Below, piece after piece: positions 6,526 to 33,102 of a DNA stretch of 41,934 bases. Numbering within the stretch: position 1 is the first letter of the stretch; each line of letters opens with the position of its first letter. Both the position numbers and the translations under genes were made by a program. This stretch comes from a virus. Below the pieces are notes generated by a model. That model was not told the DNA's origin. It saw nothing but the letters and a program-made list of their open reading frames with translations, and did not search any database. Location of the stretch: UHGV virus genome UHGV-0119548. One strand, given 5' to 3'.

Positions 6526-7230
6526 TCAACCCACCTTGCTTGATCCTGGGAAACATGAAATTGGTAACGGATTCGGGCGCGGAAAACGCAAACGGCAACC
6601 GCTTAGGCGGTGGCTGCATTTATCCAGCTTTGGATCGCTTGTCGATTCGTCTTTGTCAGTAGCTACAGGGCCGCCACTATATCCGCAACCGTCGCCGCGA
6701 TATTGCCACTGGCAAACGTCAGCGAGGATTGTGCGCCCAGGGATAACCGCTTTATCAGCATCAATTGGCGTTGACAGTTCATATTGCACCTGGTCCGCTG
6801 TTTCTTCGCTCATCGCTTCAACGACGTAAAAAGACACAGCCTCAATAGATGGATCTGCATCTGGATTGCCGTTGGGGAAGTTAACGGCGTCCAGGTATTT
6901 TACTTCCACCTGGCGGCGAGTAACCTTCATTCCTCGCAGGTCGTTGAAATCGTTATTCATCCCGGTGATTAGCCCGCCAATGTTGGCTACTACCATTTGG
7001 GGGCGTGAGTAAACGCCTTCGTTTTTCATTTCGAAGCCAGTTGCCTCGATCGGGTAGCTGTTGTAAGCCAAGCCCTTCCAGATAACCGGGCCGTAATAGC
7101 CATTCACGCCGGAATGGAAGCGGATAACCTCGCCACCCAGGGGCGTGAGGTCTAATTCAAACAAGTCAATTACCGCGCCGACTCCGGCATCGACGGAATC
7201 AATAATCATTTCTCTCGGAATATTGCGCAT
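6526..7230 (-). CDS. L: minor tail protein L-like (234 aa)
   Basis: motifs YLDAVNFPNGNPDADP and CQWQYRGDGCGYSG resemble lambda gpL as recalled; order M-L-K-I-J. Confidence 0.85.
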   Translation of the reverse strand: MRNIPREMIIDSVDAGVGAVIDLFELDLTPLGGEVIRFHSGVNGYYGPVIWKGLAYNSYPIEATGFEMKNEGVYSRPQMVVANIGGLITGMNNDFNDLRGMKVTRRQVEVKYLDAVNFPNGNPDADPSIEAVSFYVVEAMSEETADQVQYELSTPIDADKAVIPGRTILADVCQWQYRGDGCGYSGGPVATDKDESTSDPKLDKCSHRLSGCRLRFPRPNPLPISCFPGSSKVG

Positions 7231-7272
7231 TTTCTCACCTTGTCATTCTGTGATCTGCGTCACGCTAAATCA

Positions 7273-7345
7273 TACCAAAATGGATTGATCGCGGTTTTTA
7301 CAATATGTATATTTTACTCAAACGGAAGCATAGTTAACAAAATGG
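7273..7345 (+). promoter_or_regulatory. two copies of the recurrent ACAAAATGG motif upstream of plus-strand island A
   Basis: TACCAAAATGG at 7273-7283 and AACAAAATGG at 7336-7345, the latter directly upstream of RBS GGAGGTG and ATG 7360. Confidence 0.35.
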
Positions 7346-7359
7346 CGCGGAGGTGCGTT

Positions 7360-7524
7360 ATGACTGAAAAGCTATGGAAGTTGACGGTATTCATGACAGA
7401 CGGTAGGGAAAAGGTTATCGCCCTGTATGACGACGAGGGTGAAGCATTGGTTGACGCGCTTTTACTTGCTGAGGATGACCGCCTTTTGGGATACCAGATC
7501 GAACCTGTCAAATATGAGGGTTAG
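7360..7524 (+). CDS. hypothetical protein (54 aa), island A
   Basis: internal ATG of track ORF 7240-7524 with RBS GGAGGTG; acidic product MTEKLWKL... Confidence 0.4.
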   Translation: MTEKLWKLTVFMTDGREKVIALYDDEGEALVDALLLAEDDRLLGYQIEPVKYEG

Positions 7525-8269: not shown

Positions 8270-8300
8270 ATAACCCCGCTTCTCGCGGGGTCGTGTTTAT
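8270..8300. terminator. bidirectional intrinsic terminator
   Basis: hairpin CCCCGC-TTCTC-GCGGGG (8274-8290) with T-run 8291-8300 on plus and T-rich tail on minus. Confidence 0.55.
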
Positions 8301-8497: not shown

Positions 8498-8847
8498 CTA
8501 ACAACTTGCTCAAACGTTGCGTTAAGCGTGTATACAGGACCGTCTTTCGTCATACTCCAGCTACGGCAAACAAAAAGCCTTTGCACGCCATCCATCGACG
8601 GCGACCAGTAAAAAGCCTCGACAGCGCCGCGCGCCATCAAGAATGCTTCAGCCTGGATCGCCACGTTTCCACCATCACCGCATCCTGCGCTACTGCCTTT
8701 AAAGACCAGGGTGTAGCTGTCAAGCAATGTGTTGATCCCTTTCGCCTGGCGCTGTTCATAACCATCACCAAGTTTGACAACGGACACATTCGGTTCCCTG
8801 GTTACGCTGTAGCTTCGTTGCGGCGTCCATTTGAACACTTCCGGCAT
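8494..8847 (-). CDS. M: minor tail protein M-like (117 aa)
   Basis: LGDGYEQR and C-terminal FEQVV resemble lambda gpM as recalled; position after tape measure; RBS GGGGGGG. Confidence 0.85.
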   Translation of the reverse strand: MPEVFKWTPQRSYSVTREPNVSVVKLGDGYEQRQAKGINTLLDSYTLVFKGSSAGCGDGGNVAIQAEAFLMARGAVEAFYWSPSMDGVQRLFVCRSWSMTKDGPVYTLNATFEQVVR

Positions 8848-8863
8848 AAAACCCCCCCATAAG

Positions 8864-8947
8864 TTACATTTTGTATATATCTTTACGCGCTTCTACGCGA
8901 AAAATAAGATCATTGTCACAATGATTATAGCTAGTTTACAAAATGGC
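8864..8947. promoter_or_regulatory. divergent regulatory region: inverted ACAAAATG(G/T) motif pair flanking a conserved 25-nt element
   Basis: TTACATTTTGTATA at 8864-8877, TTTACAAAATGGC at 8935-8947, 25-nt element at 8882-8906; between minus gene M and plus island B. Confidence 0.4.
8882..8906 (-). promoter_or_regulatory. conserved 25-nt element TTTACGCG(C/T)T(T/G)CTACGCGAAAAATA, copy 1
   Basis: near-identical second copy at 21166-21190; both lie 20-60 nt upstream of a minus-strand structural gene start (M; portal). Confidence 0.35.
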
Positions 8948-9016
8948 TTCACATAGCACGCAACAAGATGTATATAGAAAGCAAGAAGAAAGTAGTACCA
9001 ACGAAGGAGGCCCAAA

Positions 9017-9172
9017 ATGAAACGCTATGTAGTAGTAATGCTAAATAACGCATTCGAACAAGTGGAAATAGCAATCGTTAAGGGTTTCGACGACGCATTC
9101 AAATACGGTCAATTCATGATGAATGCGAAAGAAGATGAATACCGGGACTTCTTCCTGAAGGCACTTAACTAA
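9017..9172 (+). CDS. hypothetical protein (51 aa), island B
   Basis: ATG preceded by GAAGGAGG; product MKRYVVVMLNNAFEQVEIAIVKGFDDAFKYGQFMMNAKEDEYRDFFLKALN; below track length cutoff. Confidence 0.45.
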   Translation: MKRYVVVMLNNAFEQVEIAIVKGFDDAFKYGQFMMNAKEDEYRDFFLKALN

Positions 9173-9189
9173 GGATGATGGGGTGAGTT

Positions 9190-9444
9190 ATGAAACTGGT
9201 AGCGATTGACAGAAATCTGAAAGCACAGAAAAACGCACAGGACCGGATCATCAAGAAAGGTAAGGAATTACTTAAAGCCTTTCTGAGAAAAGAAGTTTAC
9301 CCCAAAAAGTTACGCGACGGTTACGGATACAAAATGGATATCAATCTTGATCGGAGGCTGTTTAGCGAAGATTTGAAGGTTTGGTTAATTGTTGAGCACC
9401 ATGCCTATAACAAGTTATGTGGCGTGAAAGGCACTCATAAGTGA
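9190..9444 (+). CDS. hypothetical basic protein (84 aa), island B
   Basis: ORF with GGGGTGAG RBS; followed by terminator. Confidence 0.5.
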   Translation: MKLVAIDRNLKAQKNAQDRIIKKGKELLKAFLRKEVYPKKLRDGYGYKMDINLDRRLFSEDLKVWLIVEHHAYNKLCGVKGTHK

Positions 9445-9494: not shown

Positions 9495-9536
9495 ACGAAA
9501 AATAACCCCGGCATTGCACCGGGGTTTAGTTTATTT
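9495..9536. terminator. bidirectional intrinsic terminator
   Basis: hairpin CCCCGG-CATTGCA-CCGGGG (9506-9524) with TTTAGTTTATTT on plus and A-run-derived T-run on minus; tape-measure stop at 9531. Confidence 0.6.
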
Positions 9537-11873: not shown

Positions 11874-11914
11874 GATTTAACCTCATGCAAAAATGTGATC
11901 TGTGTATCTATTTT

Positions 11915-11953
11915 ATACAAAATGGCTTTACTTCAACGACTCCATTTTGTATA
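11915..11953. promoter_or_regulatory. perfect 12-nt inverted repeat TATACAAAATGG / CCATTTTGTATA in divergent intergenic region
   Basis: copies at 11915-11926 and 11942-11953, 15-nt spacer; TGTATAAA resembles a -10 with TTTACT as -35 17 nt upstream for gene at 12001. Confidence 0.4.
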
Positions 11954-12000
11954 AAGAAGCCAAAGGGAATGGTCAGTAAATCAAGTTAGCGTGGTGGGTT

Positions 12001-12660
12001 ATGAAACGGTTAGCAAAAGTGGCAATGATTGCGGCGGTATTGGGTCTGGTTGGTTGCAATGAGGATAATGAAAAAGCGCCTATAGTGACCACTCAAGAAC
12101 AACAAGCATTAGCAGAGAAAAATGCTAAATGGCTTGCAGAACAACAAGCAAAACAAGCCGCATATGAGGCACAGTTAGCAAAAGAAAAAGCTGGTAAACA
12201 GTGGCTTGTGGTCGAAAGAAAAGATGATATGCAGGACACAAAAAACGTGTTCCTTTTCGTGAAAGCAGAACATTTCAGCGGAAGTCTTGATGCTTTCCCT
12301 ACACTGAAAGCACGGGATGAAAACAAACCTGTATTAACAATCGCTTGCCAGGGTAATAAAACAAAAATGTTCGTAGCATGGTCAAACCATGTAACTGACG
12401 CTGGGGACACTACTTATATTAACTACCGGATCGGCGATCACAAAGCTGTAGCTACTGAATGGAGTCGGTCAACTAACTATAAAGCTCTTGGATTATGGAA
12501 CGGCAAAAAAGCCATTCCAATGATTAAAAAACTGGTTAACGAAAAACAATTTATCATTGAAGTAGTGCCGGAAGCTGGCGACATTGAGAAAGCAGTGTTT
12601 AACATTGATGGTCTTTATAACCACATCGACAAAGTGAAAAACGCTTGCAACTGGAATTAA
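12001..12660 (+). CDS. lipoprotein (219 aa), island C
   Basis: signal peptide MKRLAKVAMIAAVLGLVGC with lipobox LVGC; RBS GGTGGG. Confidence 0.7.
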   Translation: MKRLAKVAMIAAVLGLVGCNEDNEKAPIVTTQEQQALAEKNAKWLAEQQAKQAAYEAQLAKEKAGKQWLVVERKDDMQDTKNVFLFVKAEHFSGSLDAFPTLKARDENKPVLTIACQGNKTKMFVAWSNHVTDAGDTTYINYRIGDHKAVATEWSRSTNYKALGLWNGKKAIPMIKKLVNEKQFIIEVVPEAGDIEKAVFNIDGLYNHIDKVKNACNWN

Positions 12661-12669
12661 GGGTGAAAC

Positions 12670-12990
12670 ATGAAACGCGATGAATGGATGAGAAAATGGG
12701 AACATAAACAAGTAGCATATAATCGCAAGATGAACCGCGAATTTGACTTCGGTGTCGCAGAGCGTGATTGTGGGTATAAAGGAAATCTAAATGGTGCATA
12801 TGTTCAACATGTTGGCGATAAACAGTATTATTACATTGTCAACTTCAACCATGTATTGCACGCAGATCTGGTTGTTATTGATGGGAAAACAAAAATAGTA
12901 GCGAATAAACGCATTAATAAGAACGCAGCAATCAATATATTAACAGTGATTCGCACCCAGATGAATGTGCTTTACGAAAAAATAGCATAA
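12670..12990 (+). CDS. hypothetical protein (106 aa), island C
   Basis: ORF 10 nt after lipoprotein gene; followed by terminator. Confidence 0.5.
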   Translation: MKRDEWMRKWEHKQVAYNRKMNREFDFGVAERDCGYKGNLNGAYVQHVGDKQYYYIVNFNHVLHADLVVIDGKTKIVANKRINKNAAINILTVIRTQMNVLYEKIA

Positions 12991-28142: not shown

Positions 28143-28421
28143 TTATGCCATGCGTGCAAATTCAAGTGATTTGCATTCGTAGTCTTCCTCTGCCTGTTCG
28201 ATGACTGCCATCATCATTTCGTTTGCGTTGTTGAATGCGTTGCTTTGTGCGAACTTGTCGGCTCCACCTTCTTCTTCGAACTCCGCGTTGTTTGCTGCAA
28301 TGTAGTGATATTCGATGTTGTTCAGGTAAGGGCTTGCAGCGTGTGCTGGGTCTTCTTTCTCCACCATCTCCCAAAATGCGTTTAAGCGAGATTCGACTTC
28401 TTTGTTAATCCAGCGTTTCAT
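28143..28421 (-). CDS. hypothetical acidic protein (92 aa)
   Basis: ORF; Glu/Asp/Ala-rich. Confidence 0.5.
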   Translation of the reverse strand: MKRWINKEVESRLNAFWEMVEKEDPAHAASPYLNNIEYHYIAANNAEFEEEGGADKFAQSNAFNNANEMMMAVIEQAEEDYECKSLEFARMA

Positions 28422-28459
28422 TTTTCTACCCTCCGCATCGTTCTCTCTTCAGCTTCTTT

Positions 28460-28500
28460 ATAACAAAATGGCACTGCCGAAACAATGCCATTTCGTAAAC
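28460..28500. promoter_or_regulatory. imperfect inverted ACAAAATGGCA / TGCCATTTCGT motif pair
   Basis: ATAACAAAATGGCA 28460-28473 and TGCCATTTCGTAAAC 28486-28500; intergenic between two minus genes. Confidence 0.35.
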
Positions 28501-28519
28501 CTTGTGATACAGATCACAT

Positions 28520-30160: not shown

Positions 30161-30390
30161 TCGTCTGCCTCCCAGTGGTCTATGCTGATTAAAAAGTCCC
30201 GGATAGCGTGTCGTTCGTCGCGCGTTGGCTTGCGCTTACGGTAAATCTTAAAGTCAAACCATTCTTTTTCTTGTTCGAAATCCAGGTTGTAAGCAAGCAC
30301 CTCAATATATCCACATTCGTGATACTGGTACGCCACGCCAGCACGAACAAAAAAGCGGGTTTTATCCCGCTTGTGTTCATAGATACGCAT
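30157..30390 (-). CDS. hypothetical protein (77 aa)
   Basis: ORF with ATGA coupling. Confidence 0.5.
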   Translation of the reverse strand: MRIYEHKRDKTRFFVRAGVAYQYHECGYIEVLAYNLDFEQEKEWFDFKIYRKRKPTRDERHAIRDFLISIDHWEADE

Positions 30391-32380: not shown

Positions 32381-33102
32381 TATTCACCCCGTGTCACTCG
32401 TTTAATTTCGTTATCAGCCCGCGCCTCTTCTTTGAACAATTCAGTAATGGCGTCTTCATAGAAAGCACGGTATTTCTTCCACCACGTTGATCGGCTTACC
32501 GGAAATACAAGCTGATTAACCGCACGCCGGACAAGATCTACAGGGAAACGCGAGTACCCGCGCCCGCCGCAATGCTGGCACGTTTTGAACGCTGGCATTT
32601 CCGCTGCTTCACTGGCTGCTTTATCCGGTATCTCGCCGCGCCCTTTGCATCGTTTACAATGATTGCGAACTTTTCCATGCCCCTTGCATTTTTTGCAAAG
32701 GTGTTTTTCTCCGTAGTCGTCAAACGTAAATTTATATCCGCCGCAATCCATACAAGTTTTTTCTGTCGCGGCACTCTGGCAGTAATCCCGAAACGCGAAA
32801 ACGGCAACAAGAATAATAAGATCATTGCGTTTGTCCTCGTCCAACTCCATGACGTATTCGTAATCTTTTGCCATAGCTCTTAAACGCTCTGTAAGCAAAA
32901 CTACGGCCCTGTGTTTTTCGGCTTGCGATAATTCCATCTTCCCTAAAAAAGCGCTATAACCAAGCTCTACGCGCGATTGCGCCATACCTGCTGCGGTTAG
33001 TGCATCAGTAGTATTAAGCGAGTCTGGGGACGTGCCCCGGCTTTCATCTGACAAACGCGGTGATTTTGGGAGGTGGAATTTAAGAATAGATTCCAAATTC
33101 AT
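32380..33102 (-). CDS. Q: late-gene antiterminator Q-like protein (240 aa) with four CxxCxGxG zinc-finger repeats
   Basis: N-terminus MNLESILKFHLPKSPRLSDESRGTSPDSL...AAGMAQS resembles lambda Q as recalled; central Cys-rich region; downstream of NinG-RusA. Confidence 0.8.
   Translation of the reverse strand: MNLESILKFHLPKSPRLSDESRGTSPDSLNTTDALTAAGMAQSRVELGYSAFLGKMELSQAEKHRAVVLLTERLRAMAKDYEYVMELDEDKRNDLIILVAVFAFRDYCQSAATEKTCMDCGGYKFTFDDYGEKHLCKKCKGHGKVRNHCKRCKGRGEIPDKAASEAAEMPAFKTCQHCGGRGYSRFPVDLVRRAVNQLVFPVSRSTWWKKYRAFYEDAITELFKEEARADNEIKRVTRGE

Follow-up and report, generated by a model that had tools for sequence, protein, structure and literature searches.

Positions 11914 to 11953 of this viral DNA hold two inverted copies of a 12-nt motif, TATACAAAATGG, that recurs elsewhere in the same stretch, which raises the question of what the motif marks. 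The initial annotation regarded its copies as possible divergent promoters, as operator sites for a dimeric regulator, or as both. The window, i.e., the whole stretch of 41,934 nucleotides that was analyzed, is a temperate coliphage of the mEp021 group (mEpimmI), and it was compared mainly with MagusPhagus and mEp021, giving three genomes. Phages of this group were reported to be as common as lambdoid phages among the human-gut coliphage isolates of one collection (PMC11893012). [quoted passage not shown] Its genome paper likewise mentions no such motif, and a full-text literature search with the motif sequence returned only primer and miRNA noise. We consider it probable (roughly 0.6) that the 12-mer is the conserved arm of promoter-associated cis-regulatory cassettes specific to mEp021-like (mEpimmI) temperate coliphages. 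That a putative dedicated sequence-specific factor, and not RNA polymerase alone, reads the motif is a more tentative proposal.

The exact 12-mer has three matches in the window, at 11914-11925 (plus strand), 11942-11953 (minus strand) and 34560-34571 (plus strand), and exact matches occurred in none of 100 dinucleotide shuffles. With up to two mismatches allowed, 15 matches are found against 5.6 +/- 2.3 expected, a number reached by no shuffle, so the motif passes the comparison with shuffled sequence that had been proposed for it. The 9-mer core ACAAAATGG occurs ten times in the window (0.64 expected). When all k-mers were ranked without bias, the two 10-mers that stood out most in the window were ATACAAAATG and TACAAAATGG, with eight and seven copies against 0.17 and 0.13 expected (p of about 1e-11 and 1e-10); in MagusPhagus they come first, and in mEp021 they are among the few highest-ranked. 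The word (A)TACAAAATG(G) is the top over-represented 9-10-mer of the window, with 7-10 copies against 0.1-0.6 expected. A chance origin of the motif is ruled out by the shuffles, the core counts and the k-mer ranking.

The first copy starts at 11914, one base before the position first reported for it (11915-11926), and the second exact plus-strand copy, at 34560, lies where it had been placed. The inverted partner at 11942-11953 is perfect, as claimed, and the match even extends to 14 nt, making the site a perfect inverted repeat (TTTATACAAAATGG / CCATTTTGTATAAA) with arms 16 nt apart. All the near-copies listed earlier are present, at 7272-7283, 7334-7345, 8866-8877, 8935-8946, 28459-28471 with 28488-28499, 34627-34638 and 41584-41595. 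Copies at 38170-38181 and 38146-38157 had been overlooked, as had the longer cassette with its CRP-like site, the two terminator sites, the mosaic junctions and the mEp021 membership. The statement that every site is intergenic holds for the sites listed at the time but not for all core copies: on the ORF maps, ten of 13 exact ACAAAATG cores are intergenic, and the remaining three (9329, 16031 and 19950) fall inside a coding sequence or on a start codon, the one at 9329 not being kept in relatives.

The 12-mer belongs to intergenic cassettes of 60-80 bp with a common layout, five of which (A, B, C, D and I) are present in the window. In the direction of the gene, each cassette consists of a CRP-like TGTGA-N6-TCACA site or a TGTGATCT half, 11-24 nt, a forward copy T(A/T)TACAAAATGG, one base, a -35-like hexamer and a 17-nt spacer; the inverted copy spans the end of this spacer (its last eight nucleotides, CCATTTTG or, in degenerate form, CAAKATG) and the first four bases of a TATAxx -10-like hexamer. 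Assuming the -10 element at -12 to -7, the forward copy lies at about -48 to -37 and the inverted copy at about -20 to -9. The remark that the inverted form falls where a -10 element would sit is borne out, given that the inverted copy always ends in the -10-like TATAxx.

The hexamers following the forward copy are TTTACT (A), TTCACA (D), TTGATC (I) and, at the gp16/gp17 promoter of relatives, TTGACT; 17 nt further on lie TATAAA, TATATA, TATATT and TATATT, respectively. By chance alone, a hexamer at a fixed offset would agree with TTGACA in four or more of its six positions at about 4% of sites. Cassette C has TTGTTT-16-TATACT, and cassette B is weaker, with TTGTTT-17 (or ATTGTT-18)-TATAAA. 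A -35-like hexamer with at least four of six matches to TTGACA, 16-18 nt from a -10-like hexamer, is thus found at the cassettes, more weakly at B. A -10-like hexamer with both the A of position 2 and the T of position 6 is seen in I (TATATT) and C (TATACT) and not in A, B or D. In A and B, where it reads TATAAA (TATAAG in some orthologues), the T at -7, which is highly conserved in such promoters, is missing, and a strict promoter consensus scan did not pick up these two cassettes. TG abuts the hexamer directly and is therefore out of the extended -10 register, except in B.

All five cassettes are directed at a gene start: three of them lead into plus-strand moron islands, one into a 92-aa gene and one, immediately ahead of nutR2, into the NinF-Q operon. 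The islands carry a ParE-like toxin pair, a KilAC-domain protein and a VasI-domain lipoprotein, and every one of them has its own promoter-like cassette upstream and terminators downstream. Enrichment, architecture, conservation, terminator folds and mosaic flanks are shown by the analysis, while promoter activity, any protein binding and CRP involvement at the cassettes are our inference. The earlier promoter idea fits in its anatomy (hexamer spacing, orientation toward gene starts, position of C relative to nutR2), while the activity itself is a prediction. For divergent promoters there is less to cite: the opposite-strand -35 is poor at A and B, and only region I has a plausible leftward extended -10, TGGTATGAT (7269-7277, minus strand).

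Cassette I (7249-7313, plus strand) faces island I, whose first gene has its ATG at 7360. It comprises a CRP-like site TGTGATCTGCGTCACG (7249-7264, 9/10 match), a forward copy ATACCAAAATGG (7272-7283), the -35-like TTGATC (7285-7290), a degenerate -10-proximal copy ACAATATGTATA containing TACA-ATA-TGTA (7300-7311) and the -10-like TATATT (7308-7313). It was picked up by the promoter scan at 9/12 and is kept in MagusPhagus and mEp021. Island I has an extra forward copy, TTAACAAAATGG (7334-7345, plus strand), in its predicted 5' leader; this copy ends 3 nt ahead of a GGAGG ribosome-binding site and is invariant across the three genomes. Cassette D (8909-8976, plus strand) faces island II, i.e., a 51-aa ORF at 9017 followed by the ParE-like toxin gene, and has a palindromic CRP-like element (8909-8925), a forward copy TTTACAAAATGG (8935-8946), TTCACA (8948-8953), the inverted copy in the degenerate form ACAAGATGTATA (8963-8974) and TATATA (8971-8976). 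Cassette A (11894-11955, plus strand) faces the VasI-domain lipoprotein gene at 12001; a TGTGATCT half-site (11894-11901) precedes the forward copy, TTTACT occupies 11927-11932 and TATAAA 11950-11955. Its orthologues are found in all seven mEp-group phage records and in IMG/VR contigs.

The other two cassettes are on the minus strand. Cassette B (28457-28518) faces the 92-aa gene starting at 28421, with a perfect CRP-like site TGTGATCTGTATCACA (28503-28518, 10/10 match), a forward copy TTTACGAAATGG (28488-28499) and an inverted copy CCATTTTGTTATA (28459-28471) with TATAAA at 28457-28462. Cassette C (34558-34638), between a C5-methyltransferase gene and a NinF-like gene, faces the NinF-Q operon. 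Its forward copy TTTACAAAATGG (34627-34638) is followed by an intrinsic terminator (34593-34628), the equivalent of TERM_4/t4 of mEp021, of which a perfect CRP-like site, TGTGATACAGGTCACA (34603-34618, 10/10 match), forms the stem top; then come TTGTTT (34580-34585), the inverted copy CCATTTTGTATA (34560-34571) and TATACT (34558-34563). The boxA of nutR2, GCTCTTTAAAAATCCGG (34526-34542, minus strand), lies about 10 nt downstream of the predicted start site of cassette C, and nutR2 has been placed "downstream of the methyltransferase" (PMC11893012).

Further minus-strand copies lie apart from these cassettes. Site E (38146-38181), upstream of a 91-aa gene starting at 38165, has two copies in the same orientation, ACATTTTGTATT (38170-38181) and CCGTTTTGTAAG (38146-38157); in mEp021 the second copy of this site stands ahead of a -10-like TAAACT, with TTGTGA 17 nt upstream. 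Solitary T-variant copies are found just upstream of the start of a minor tail gene at 8847 (TATACAAAATGT, 8866-8877), with partial conservation in mEp021, and in the narrow space that separates the N-like gp17 gene from the small gene after it (AATACAAAATGT, 41584-41595), kept in MagusPhagus and mEp021. The solitary copies beside ribosome-binding sites (7334, 8866 and 41584) are outside the scheme of copies at about -42 and -15.

Cassettes A and B keep arms of 9-12 nt and an exact 16-nt gap around unrelated spacers. Given that A, B and D also share GGCTTYAC and AGAARGC, part of this likeness reflects common descent and not independent constraint. In IMG/VR the N16 arrangement is found in mEpimmI-like contigs only, and other spacings or arrangements of two copies gave only unrelated hairpins and tandem repeats; hence the N16 arrangement is specific to mEpimmI-like phages. 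A core-N16-core scan over one genome per species gave 113 matches in unrelated taxa, which are generic hairpins, with no Escherichia among the 80 listed, and it is therefore uninformative about a host regulon.

CRP-like sites accompany the motif. The 16-bp TGTGA-N6-TCACA matches in cassettes I (7249), B (28503) and C (34603) are three of the four such sites in the window, where 1.4 are expected, and in the three genomes 13 of 17 sites matching at 9/10 or better lie within 45 bp of a motif core. The half-sites are kept between genomes while the central N6 varies, and each of the three TGTGATCT words in the window falls within a cassette. With the -10 again assumed at -12 to -7, the CRP-like centers lie at -60.5 (A and B), -59.5 (C), -63.5 (I) and -70.5 (D). 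At the Lpp exclusion gene of mEp021, a CRP-like site lies about 40 bp upstream of the predicted start. Host CRP probably co-regulates several cassettes.

In relatives, the motif is also present at both early promoters and at the Lpp exclusion gene, and their nutR1 and nutL lie 45-85 nt downstream of motif-bearing promoters. A motif copy adjoins TTGACT in 43 of 43 relatives. Across 23 unique sequences of the leftward early promoter, CCATTnTG is kept while the spacer half beside it varies. Together with the constant arms of A and B, this speaks for selection on the arms and not on the spacer.

According to the reading we prefer, the cassettes would be host sigma-70 promoters that start accessory (moron) units and early operons, with an output set by a putative DNA-binding factor recognizing TACAAAATG(G/T), likelier phage-encoded than host. 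Two copies whose centers are 28 bp apart would bracket the -35 and overlap the -10, so that occupancy would repress or gate RNA polymerase, and a single copy at about -42 would occupy the place to which the alpha C-terminal domain and class II activators bind. The arms also border the intrinsic terminators of B and C, possibly as a side role. The suggestion of an operator for a dimeric regulator is plausible given the exact 16-bp spacing in A and B and the retention of both arms; set against it, a search for candidate proteins binding the motif found none, and the 28 bp between arm centers, about 2.7 helical turns, is awkward for a simple dimer on one face of the DNA.

The rival that survives best, which we nevertheless judge unlikely, is that RNA polymerase reads the motif by itself, as a promoter consensus, with no dedicated regulator. 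The forward copy would then be a proximal UP-element subsite, the inverted copy a favored spacer/-10 context, and the motif as a whole the extended consensus of one duplicated strong-promoter family, like T4 early promoters. Every forward copy does place an A-tract at -43 to -40, the proximal UP position (AAAA in those of A, D, I and the gp16/gp17 promoter), and TACAAAATG fits seven of nine positions of the proximal UP consensus, which is reportedly AAAAAARNR. The A-tract center is 19 bp (A) or 18 bp (B) from the CRP-like center, a spacing said to be like the geometry of the CAP-alphaCTD-DNA complex; the -42 copy of mEp021 site E is reversed, as an orientation-insensitive minor-groove reader would tolerate, and A, B and D are clearly paralogous. 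However, UP subsites are normally not kept base for base, whereas here C-44, T-39 and GG-38/-37 are kept across unrelated promoters. The alpha C-terminal domain leaves unexplained both the inverted copy at -20 to -9 and the perfect 14-nt palindrome of A, and copies in 5' leaders or next to ribosome-binding sites would have no role.

A prophage repressor could be the reader instead. If the motif were the operator of Rep021 (gp15) or of a Cro-like partner, the moron copies would tie expression to the immunity switch, an explanation we find improbable. The longest word common to both early-promoter regions of MagusPhagus is the motif (TCCATTTTGTA), with one copy over the spacer/-10 of the leftward promoter and one at about -42 of the rightward, as with lambda CI acting from OR2. 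Yet there is a single copy per early promoter, which is not a 14-18-bp palindrome as in CI-type operators, and the rightward copy, upstream of the -35, is poorly positioned for repression. Better operator-like sequences exist: the repeat CTTGCA/TGCAAG, present three times between rep and gp14, and TTGACTCG...CGAGTCAA (TGACTYG), running from the -35 to the start of the rightward promoter. Moreover, the Lpp exclusion gene, expected to be expressed in lysogens, has copies across its core promoter. The complete co-occurrence of Rep and motif in 43 relatives speaks for a repressor operator, although Rep is the same in all 43 (alignment scores of at least 962 against a self-score of 1030), so that a heteroimmunity comparison has no power. 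A Q-binding element or late promoter was rejected, given that only part of the group has cassette B, which lies between Q and the holin gene: it is absent from the BLAST matches in mEp021, mEp013 and mEp515, and the mEp021 motif scan is also empty there.

Alternatively, the arms may act as RNA, with ACAAAAUGG and CCAUUUUGU providing the A-tract, the U-tract and the foot of the stem in hairpins that end operons, either as (bidirectional) intrinsic terminators or as processing signals at the boundary. The spacer of cassette B does hold a hairpin, GGCAUUGU-UUCG-GCAGUGCC, followed by AUUUUGUUAU, making it an intrinsic terminator on the minus strand too. This 15-bp hairpin folds at -19.9 kcal/mol on the minus strand (z of -4.8) and at -11.2 on the plus strand; the stem uses G.U pairs, and the opposite strand therefore folds far worse. 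Its counterpart is annotated as a terminator in mEp044, mEp010 and mEp554. The forward copy of cassette C continues into t4 (-23.6 kcal/mol), and cassette A folds at -14.6 kcal/mol (z of -5.2). However, the stem of A is made of AU pairs only, with an 18-nt loop and no U-tract, and cassettes D and I show no RNA fold (z of +1.8 and +0.5) and still keep the forward copy and the spacing. A stem-loop with GC pairs and a U-tract is present at B and in the left half of C, and not at A, D or I. Given that D and I do not fold while B and C are terminators, RNA structure is not the common factor. The lone copies of the two early promoters and the Lpp promoter lack a partner, arm changes are uncompensated (T to C in B of the window, G to T in A of mEp021), and an Rfam search matched no family. 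D, I and the single copies already contradict a role in RNA as a general explanation, and we give it very little weight.

The cassettes are joints for the exchange of unrelated gene modules. Cassette A stands ahead of at least three different cargo genes, and cassette B is a mosaic junction with the flank combinations (1,a), (1,b), (2,a), (2,b) and (3,b), which include all four of the two-by-two types. That the paired arms are themselves recombination or mobility sites (recombinase targets, or terminal repeats of small elements moving morons) and not transcription signals is hardly credible: the cassettes sit exactly at mosaic junctions that pass the four-gamete test, the phage codes for Erf, SSB and an anti-RecBCD protein, and the arms, as inverted half-sites of 12 nt, recall invertase and resolvase sites, but no serine recombinase or transposase is annotated in the three genomes, the 16-bp spacer matches no recombinase site known to us, the single copies and the fixed -35/-10 register are left unexplained, and homologous exchange in any conserved 60-bp block yields the same mosaic without a dedicated enzyme.

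Known binding sites, compared with the motif by eye, gave no convincing resemblance. IHF (WATCAANNNNTTR) gives no match, Fis (GNNYAWWWWWTRNNC) gives half a match, and the repeat arrangement is wrong for an OmpR half-site. The sigma-54 -24/-12 pattern (GG-N10-GC) fits B alone, and a DnaA box (TTATACAAA against TTATNCACA) fits A alone and leaves the conserved AATGG outside. The second half of a 434-type ACAA-N6-TTGT is not kept, spacing or polarity is wrong for EvgA, NarL and GntR-type palindromes, and dif/XerCD shows a 12-nt overlap at the mEp021 Lpp site and nothing more. Short ORFs starting from an ATG within the motif have inconsistent lengths and strands and no ribosome-binding site, and this reading was rejected.

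Returning to promoter cassettes read by a dedicated factor, the motif gives concrete positions for the candidate promoters of the early operons and accessory islands, which include a toxin-antitoxin-like pair, an antirepressor-like protein, lipoproteins and, in relatives, the Lpp exclusion gene. It also hints at a missing regulator and a possible cAMP-CRP input, and the cassettes would offer a simple route for accessory-gene exchange between mEpimmI prophages. A bolder version, possible but on balance doubtful, is that a global mEpimmI regulator and host cAMP-CRP govern all moron units and three N-utilizing early promoters from about -42 and -15, with the cassettes serving as portable promoter-terminator joints for Erf-type moron swapping, a counterpart of the PeSLs of T4 discussed below. 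If true, this would add a regulatory layer besides Rep/Cro, Gp17(N) and Q. Should the cassettes prove to be ordinary promoters that have an upstream element in common, what remains is a useful annotation and no surprise.

Several known systems invite comparison. Class I and class II CRP-dependent promoters of E. coli, such as lac, malT and gal, have CRP sites at -41.5, -61.5 and -71.5. The cassettes are similar in that their sites match at 9-10/10 about 60 or 70 bp upstream of predicted starts, and differ in that these positions fit the classical -61.5 and -71.5 only in part, several orthologues retain only the TGTGATCT half, and the site in C doubles as the top of a terminator stem. The lambda CII promoters pRE, pI and paQ have TTGC-N6-TTGC around the -35. 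As there, a phage-specific repeat brackets the -35 at scattered promoters, some with a weak -35; unlike there, where direct repeats lie 10 bp apart, the copies here are inverted, 28 bp apart, with the second over the -10, and we know of no CII-like gene identified in the mEp021 group.

Lambdoid morons reportedly consist of their own promoter, gene and terminator inserted into a late operon, and the islands of the window, with their own promoter-like cassettes and terminators, resemble them. To our knowledge lambdoid morons share no single promoter motif, whereas here one 10-13-bp word and its layout are found at every island and at the early promoters.

There is also a likeness of form with the PeSLs of T4-like phages, in which a strong sigma-70-like promoter is combined with an adjacent terminator stem-loop (Arbiol et al. 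2010, PMC2839356; Comeau et al. 2014, PMC4122927). PeSLs are likewise short repeated promoter-plus-terminator cassettes beside non-essential variable genes, at places where unrelated sequences were exchanged. They belong, however, to the hyperplastic regions of lytic myoviruses, whereas the present cassettes are found in a temperate siphovirus, antisense within the late operon and at early operons. A real terminator is present at only two of the five window cassettes (B and C), A, D and I having the promoter-like part alone; where there is a hairpin, it lies inside the promoter between the arms and not beside it, and, unlike PeSLs, most window cassettes carry a CRP-like site.

The exact 12-mer occurs in three copies in the window, with no match in any shuffle, and every near-copy listed in the initial annotation is present; the position of the first copy had to be shifted by one base, to 11914-11925. 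All 7-10-mers were scored against a third-order Markov expectation. The 10-mers of top significance in the window are ATACAAAATG (p ~1e-11) and TACAAAATGG (p ~1e-10), which rank first in MagusPhagus and among the top few in mEp021. This ranking in the three genomes indicates the motif is the strongest repeated word of the phage group and not a selected coincidence. Of thirteen exact ACAAAATG cores, ten lie between genes; the remaining three, which fall in coding sequence or on a start codon (...AAAATGG), were left out of the motif set. The T-variant copies can be read as a palindrome, TACA-W3-TGTA, found four times in the window against 0.12 expected, an excess compatible with a small dimeric protein without naming one.

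With two parts of the window as query, BLAST gave matches of 80-89% identity to temperate coliphages of the mEp021 group, led by MagusPhagus, which has the window's orientation, and followed by mEp021, mEp044, mEp010, mEp554, mEp013 and mEp515. The group is known as the “mEpimmI” phages, which are non-lambdoid and depend on Nus (PMC11893012). The minus strand runs from a J-like tail fibre through tail, head, terminase and lysis genes to a lambda-type Q (PF03589), methyltransferases, Erf and the N-like antiterminator Gp17, with the repressor gene just past the right end. The Q-like gene (32383-33102, minus strand) encodes a lambda-type Antiterm domain at residues 144-230; the N-terminal half has no Pfam match, and residues 136-183 give a weak, sub-threshold match to a CXXC zinc finger (DnaJ central domain). 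No intergenic gap follows this gene, which places the late promoter elsewhere than in lambda. A strong terminator is found at 30353-30372 on the minus strand.

The tail genes are broken by three plus-strand islands, whose products are typical moron cargo. Island I encodes a 54-aa protein, a 117-aa protein and a KilAC-domain protein. In island II (9017-9444), the gene for a 51-aa protein precedes that of an 84-aa ParE-like toxin (PF24732); the two probably form a toxin-antitoxin pair, and the palindrome ATCATTGTCACAATGAT (8909-8925) upstream could be the pair's own operator. The third island is a lipoprotein gene (12001-12660; 219 aa, LVGC lipobox, type VI secretion VasI domain PF11319), in whose place an unrelated gene of ~138 aa stands in mEp021 and MagusPhagus. 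At island 3' ends (9504-9526 and 8272-8292), A-tracts and T-tracts flank GC-rich hairpins on both strands; these hairpins would be bidirectional terminators for the late Q-modified transcript to read through.

When every site is turned to face its downstream gene, a shared order emerges: a CRP-like element or its TGTGATCT half comes first, then the forward copy T(A/T)TACAAAATGG, which a single base separates from a -35-like hexamer, and, after a spacer of 17 nt, a -10-like TATAxx. The inverted copy takes in the last 8 nt of the spacer and 4 nt at the start of the -10-like hexamer. On the plus strand, cassette I (7249-7313; TTGATC-17-TATATT) faces island I (ATG 7360), cassette D (8909-8976; TTCACA-17-TATATA) faces island II (ATG 9017), and cassette A (11894-11955; TTTACT-17-TATAAA) faces the lipoprotein gene (ATG 12001). 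On the minus strand, cassette B (28457-28518; TTGTTT-17-TATAAA) faces a 92-aa gene (ATG 28421), and cassette C (34558-34638; TTGTTT-16-TATACT), in which the forward copy lies farther upstream, ahead of a terminator, faces the NinF-Q operon via nutR2. The arms at site A form a perfect 14-nt inverted repeat and lie 16 nt apart; this distance to the forward copy is retained by the degenerate inverted copies ACAATATGTATA in I and ACAAGATGTATA in D. Due to a compensating 1-nt difference between A and B, TGTGATCT stands exactly 48 nt from TATAAA in both. The sites had initially been suggested to be divergent promoters, operators or both: their anatomy argues strongly for an association with promoters and weakly for divergent ones, and the operator idea is plausible, yet unproven.

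The strand opposite cassette I carries a proper extended -10, TGGTATGAT (7269-7277, minus strand), ~40 nt upstream of the tail gene start at 7230, which may restart late-operon transcription past the antisense island. GATC (Dam) sites are found around all the cassettes and lie 11-50 bp from nine of twelve regulatory copies, mostly as TGTGATC (e.g., 7252, 7287, 8907, 11897, 28512 and 38192), a modest enrichment given that 29% of random positions have GATC within 35 bp. The phage has its own Dam-like methyltransferase.

Cassettes A and B are found at orthologous places in phage records and in ~25 IMG/VR contigs (53-57 kb). Scanning the whole genomes of MagusPhagus and mEp021 located the motif at further places. 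It stands a single base ahead of TTGACT-17-TATATT, a promoter-like element that follows the repressor gene and its terminator and precedes nutR1, gp16 and gp17; it lies within the spacer/-10 region of TTGAYC-16-TAAACT, aimed at gp14 and nutL; and it occurs upstream of the Lpp exclusion gene gp81, the helicase gene and gp26. A copy adjoins TTGACT in all 43 immunity regions gathered through Gp17, and in their leftward promoter CCATTnTG is constant and the other half of the spacer variable. In the Lpp promoter region (mEp021 52940-52990; MagusPhagus 12751-12793), the inverted copy is fused to a CRP-like site (CCATTTTGTGATCT...) with a predicted centre close to -41, as at class II promoters; a forward T-variant copy abuts TATATT/TATAAT without a gap. 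The same region holds AATGTATATTAT, identical to 12 nt of the E. coli dif core, probably by coincidence.

In the window, nutR2 (34500-34542, minus strand; boxA GCTCTTTAAAAATCCGG at 34526-34542, then a boxB-like GCAGCGCTGAAATGCG) lies directly downstream of the terminator t4 and a promoter-like element, its boxA beginning ~10 nt past the predicted cassette C start. A start at this place, rather than upstream read-through, could thus account for transcripts modified at nutR2. Three nut sites are reported for the mEpimmI group (PMC11893012), and all three lie shortly downstream of a motif-bearing promoter-like element. This placement is the strongest indirect argument that such elements do start transcription.

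TGTGA-N6-TCACA matches at 9 or 10 of 10 positions at 4, 6 and 7 sites in the three genomes, against 1.4-1.9 expected, and 13 of these 17 CRP-like sites have a motif core no more than 45 bp away. All three window copies of TGTGATCT are inside cassettes. Across genomes, D, I and C have constant half-sites and a variable central six bases, a pattern expected of a protein-binding site. If the -10 occupies -12 to -7, the CRP-like elements are centred at -60.5 (A, B), -59.5 (C), -63.5 (I) and -70.5 (D), near classical class I positions with some off them, and in several B orthologues the left half alone remains. CRP involvement is hence taken as likely for some cassettes and unproven overall.

On the minus strand, B folds at -19.9 kcal/mol (z -4.8), against only -11.2 on the plus strand, into a 15-bp hairpin with a UUCG loop followed by AUUUUGUUAU; its reliance on G.U pairs indicates selection on the transcribed strand, and B is annotated as a terminator in three relatives. 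The forward copy of C (-23.6 kcal/mol) continues into t4 (34593-34628, minus strand), a 16-pair stem with the perfect CRP consensus TGTGATACAGGTCACA at its top. Since these half-sites are constant in three genomes and the central six bases differ, a single sequence may double as terminator in the RNA and as binding site in the DNA. B and C are terminator-promoter composites. A (-14.6 kcal/mol) has an AU-only stem, a large loop and no U-tract, and D and I show no fold (z above 0). Single copies have no partner arm, changes in one arm are uncompensated in the other, and an Rfam search gave no match. Together, these results indicate that the motif itself acts at the DNA level.

The favoured reading, given somewhat less than even odds, is that a sequence-specific factor reads the motif; it would act at ~-42 and ~-15 and repress where both sites are occupied. 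This putative factor is more likely phage-encoded, given that in IMG/VR the motif, with its N16 arrangement, is restricted to the phage group. A serious rival is that RNA polymerase alone reads the forward copy, whose A-tract lies at -43 to -40 and, in A and B, 18-19 bp from the CRP-like centre; however, this does not account for an inverted copy, for the palindrome at A being perfect, for conservation at every base or for the copies in leaders. The immunity repressor (Rep, gp15) is not the best candidate, because each early promoter has one non-palindromic copy and other repeats resemble operators more. These are three CTTGCA/TGCAAG copies between rep and gp14 in the relatives' immunity region (MagusPhagus 650-960) and the inverted repeat TTGACTCG-N22-CGAGTCAA spanning the rightward early promoter, candidate Rep/Cro operators of which we found no description in the literature. 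Covariation of repressor and motif has no power here, since all 43 relatives share Rep.

The element is probably a promoter/operator cassette specific to this group; such cassettes are of a known kind, although no description for mEpimmI phages was found in the literature. The cassettes offer promoter positions that can be tested in a widespread group of gut prophages, and point to a missing regulator. In family B, a conserved block from GTGATCT to TTATAWAKAAG is joined to three unrelated upstream types (1-3) and two downstream types (a, b), in the combinations (1,a), (1,b), (2,a), (2,b) and (3,b), and cassette A stands upstream of at least three different cargo genes. Among elements already described, the PeSL of T4-like phages comes nearest: it combines promoter and terminator in one cassette, flanks ORFans and serves as an exchange point (PMC2839356, PMC4122927). 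Given the stem-loop is absent in three of the five window cassettes, their membership in the PeSL class is partial.
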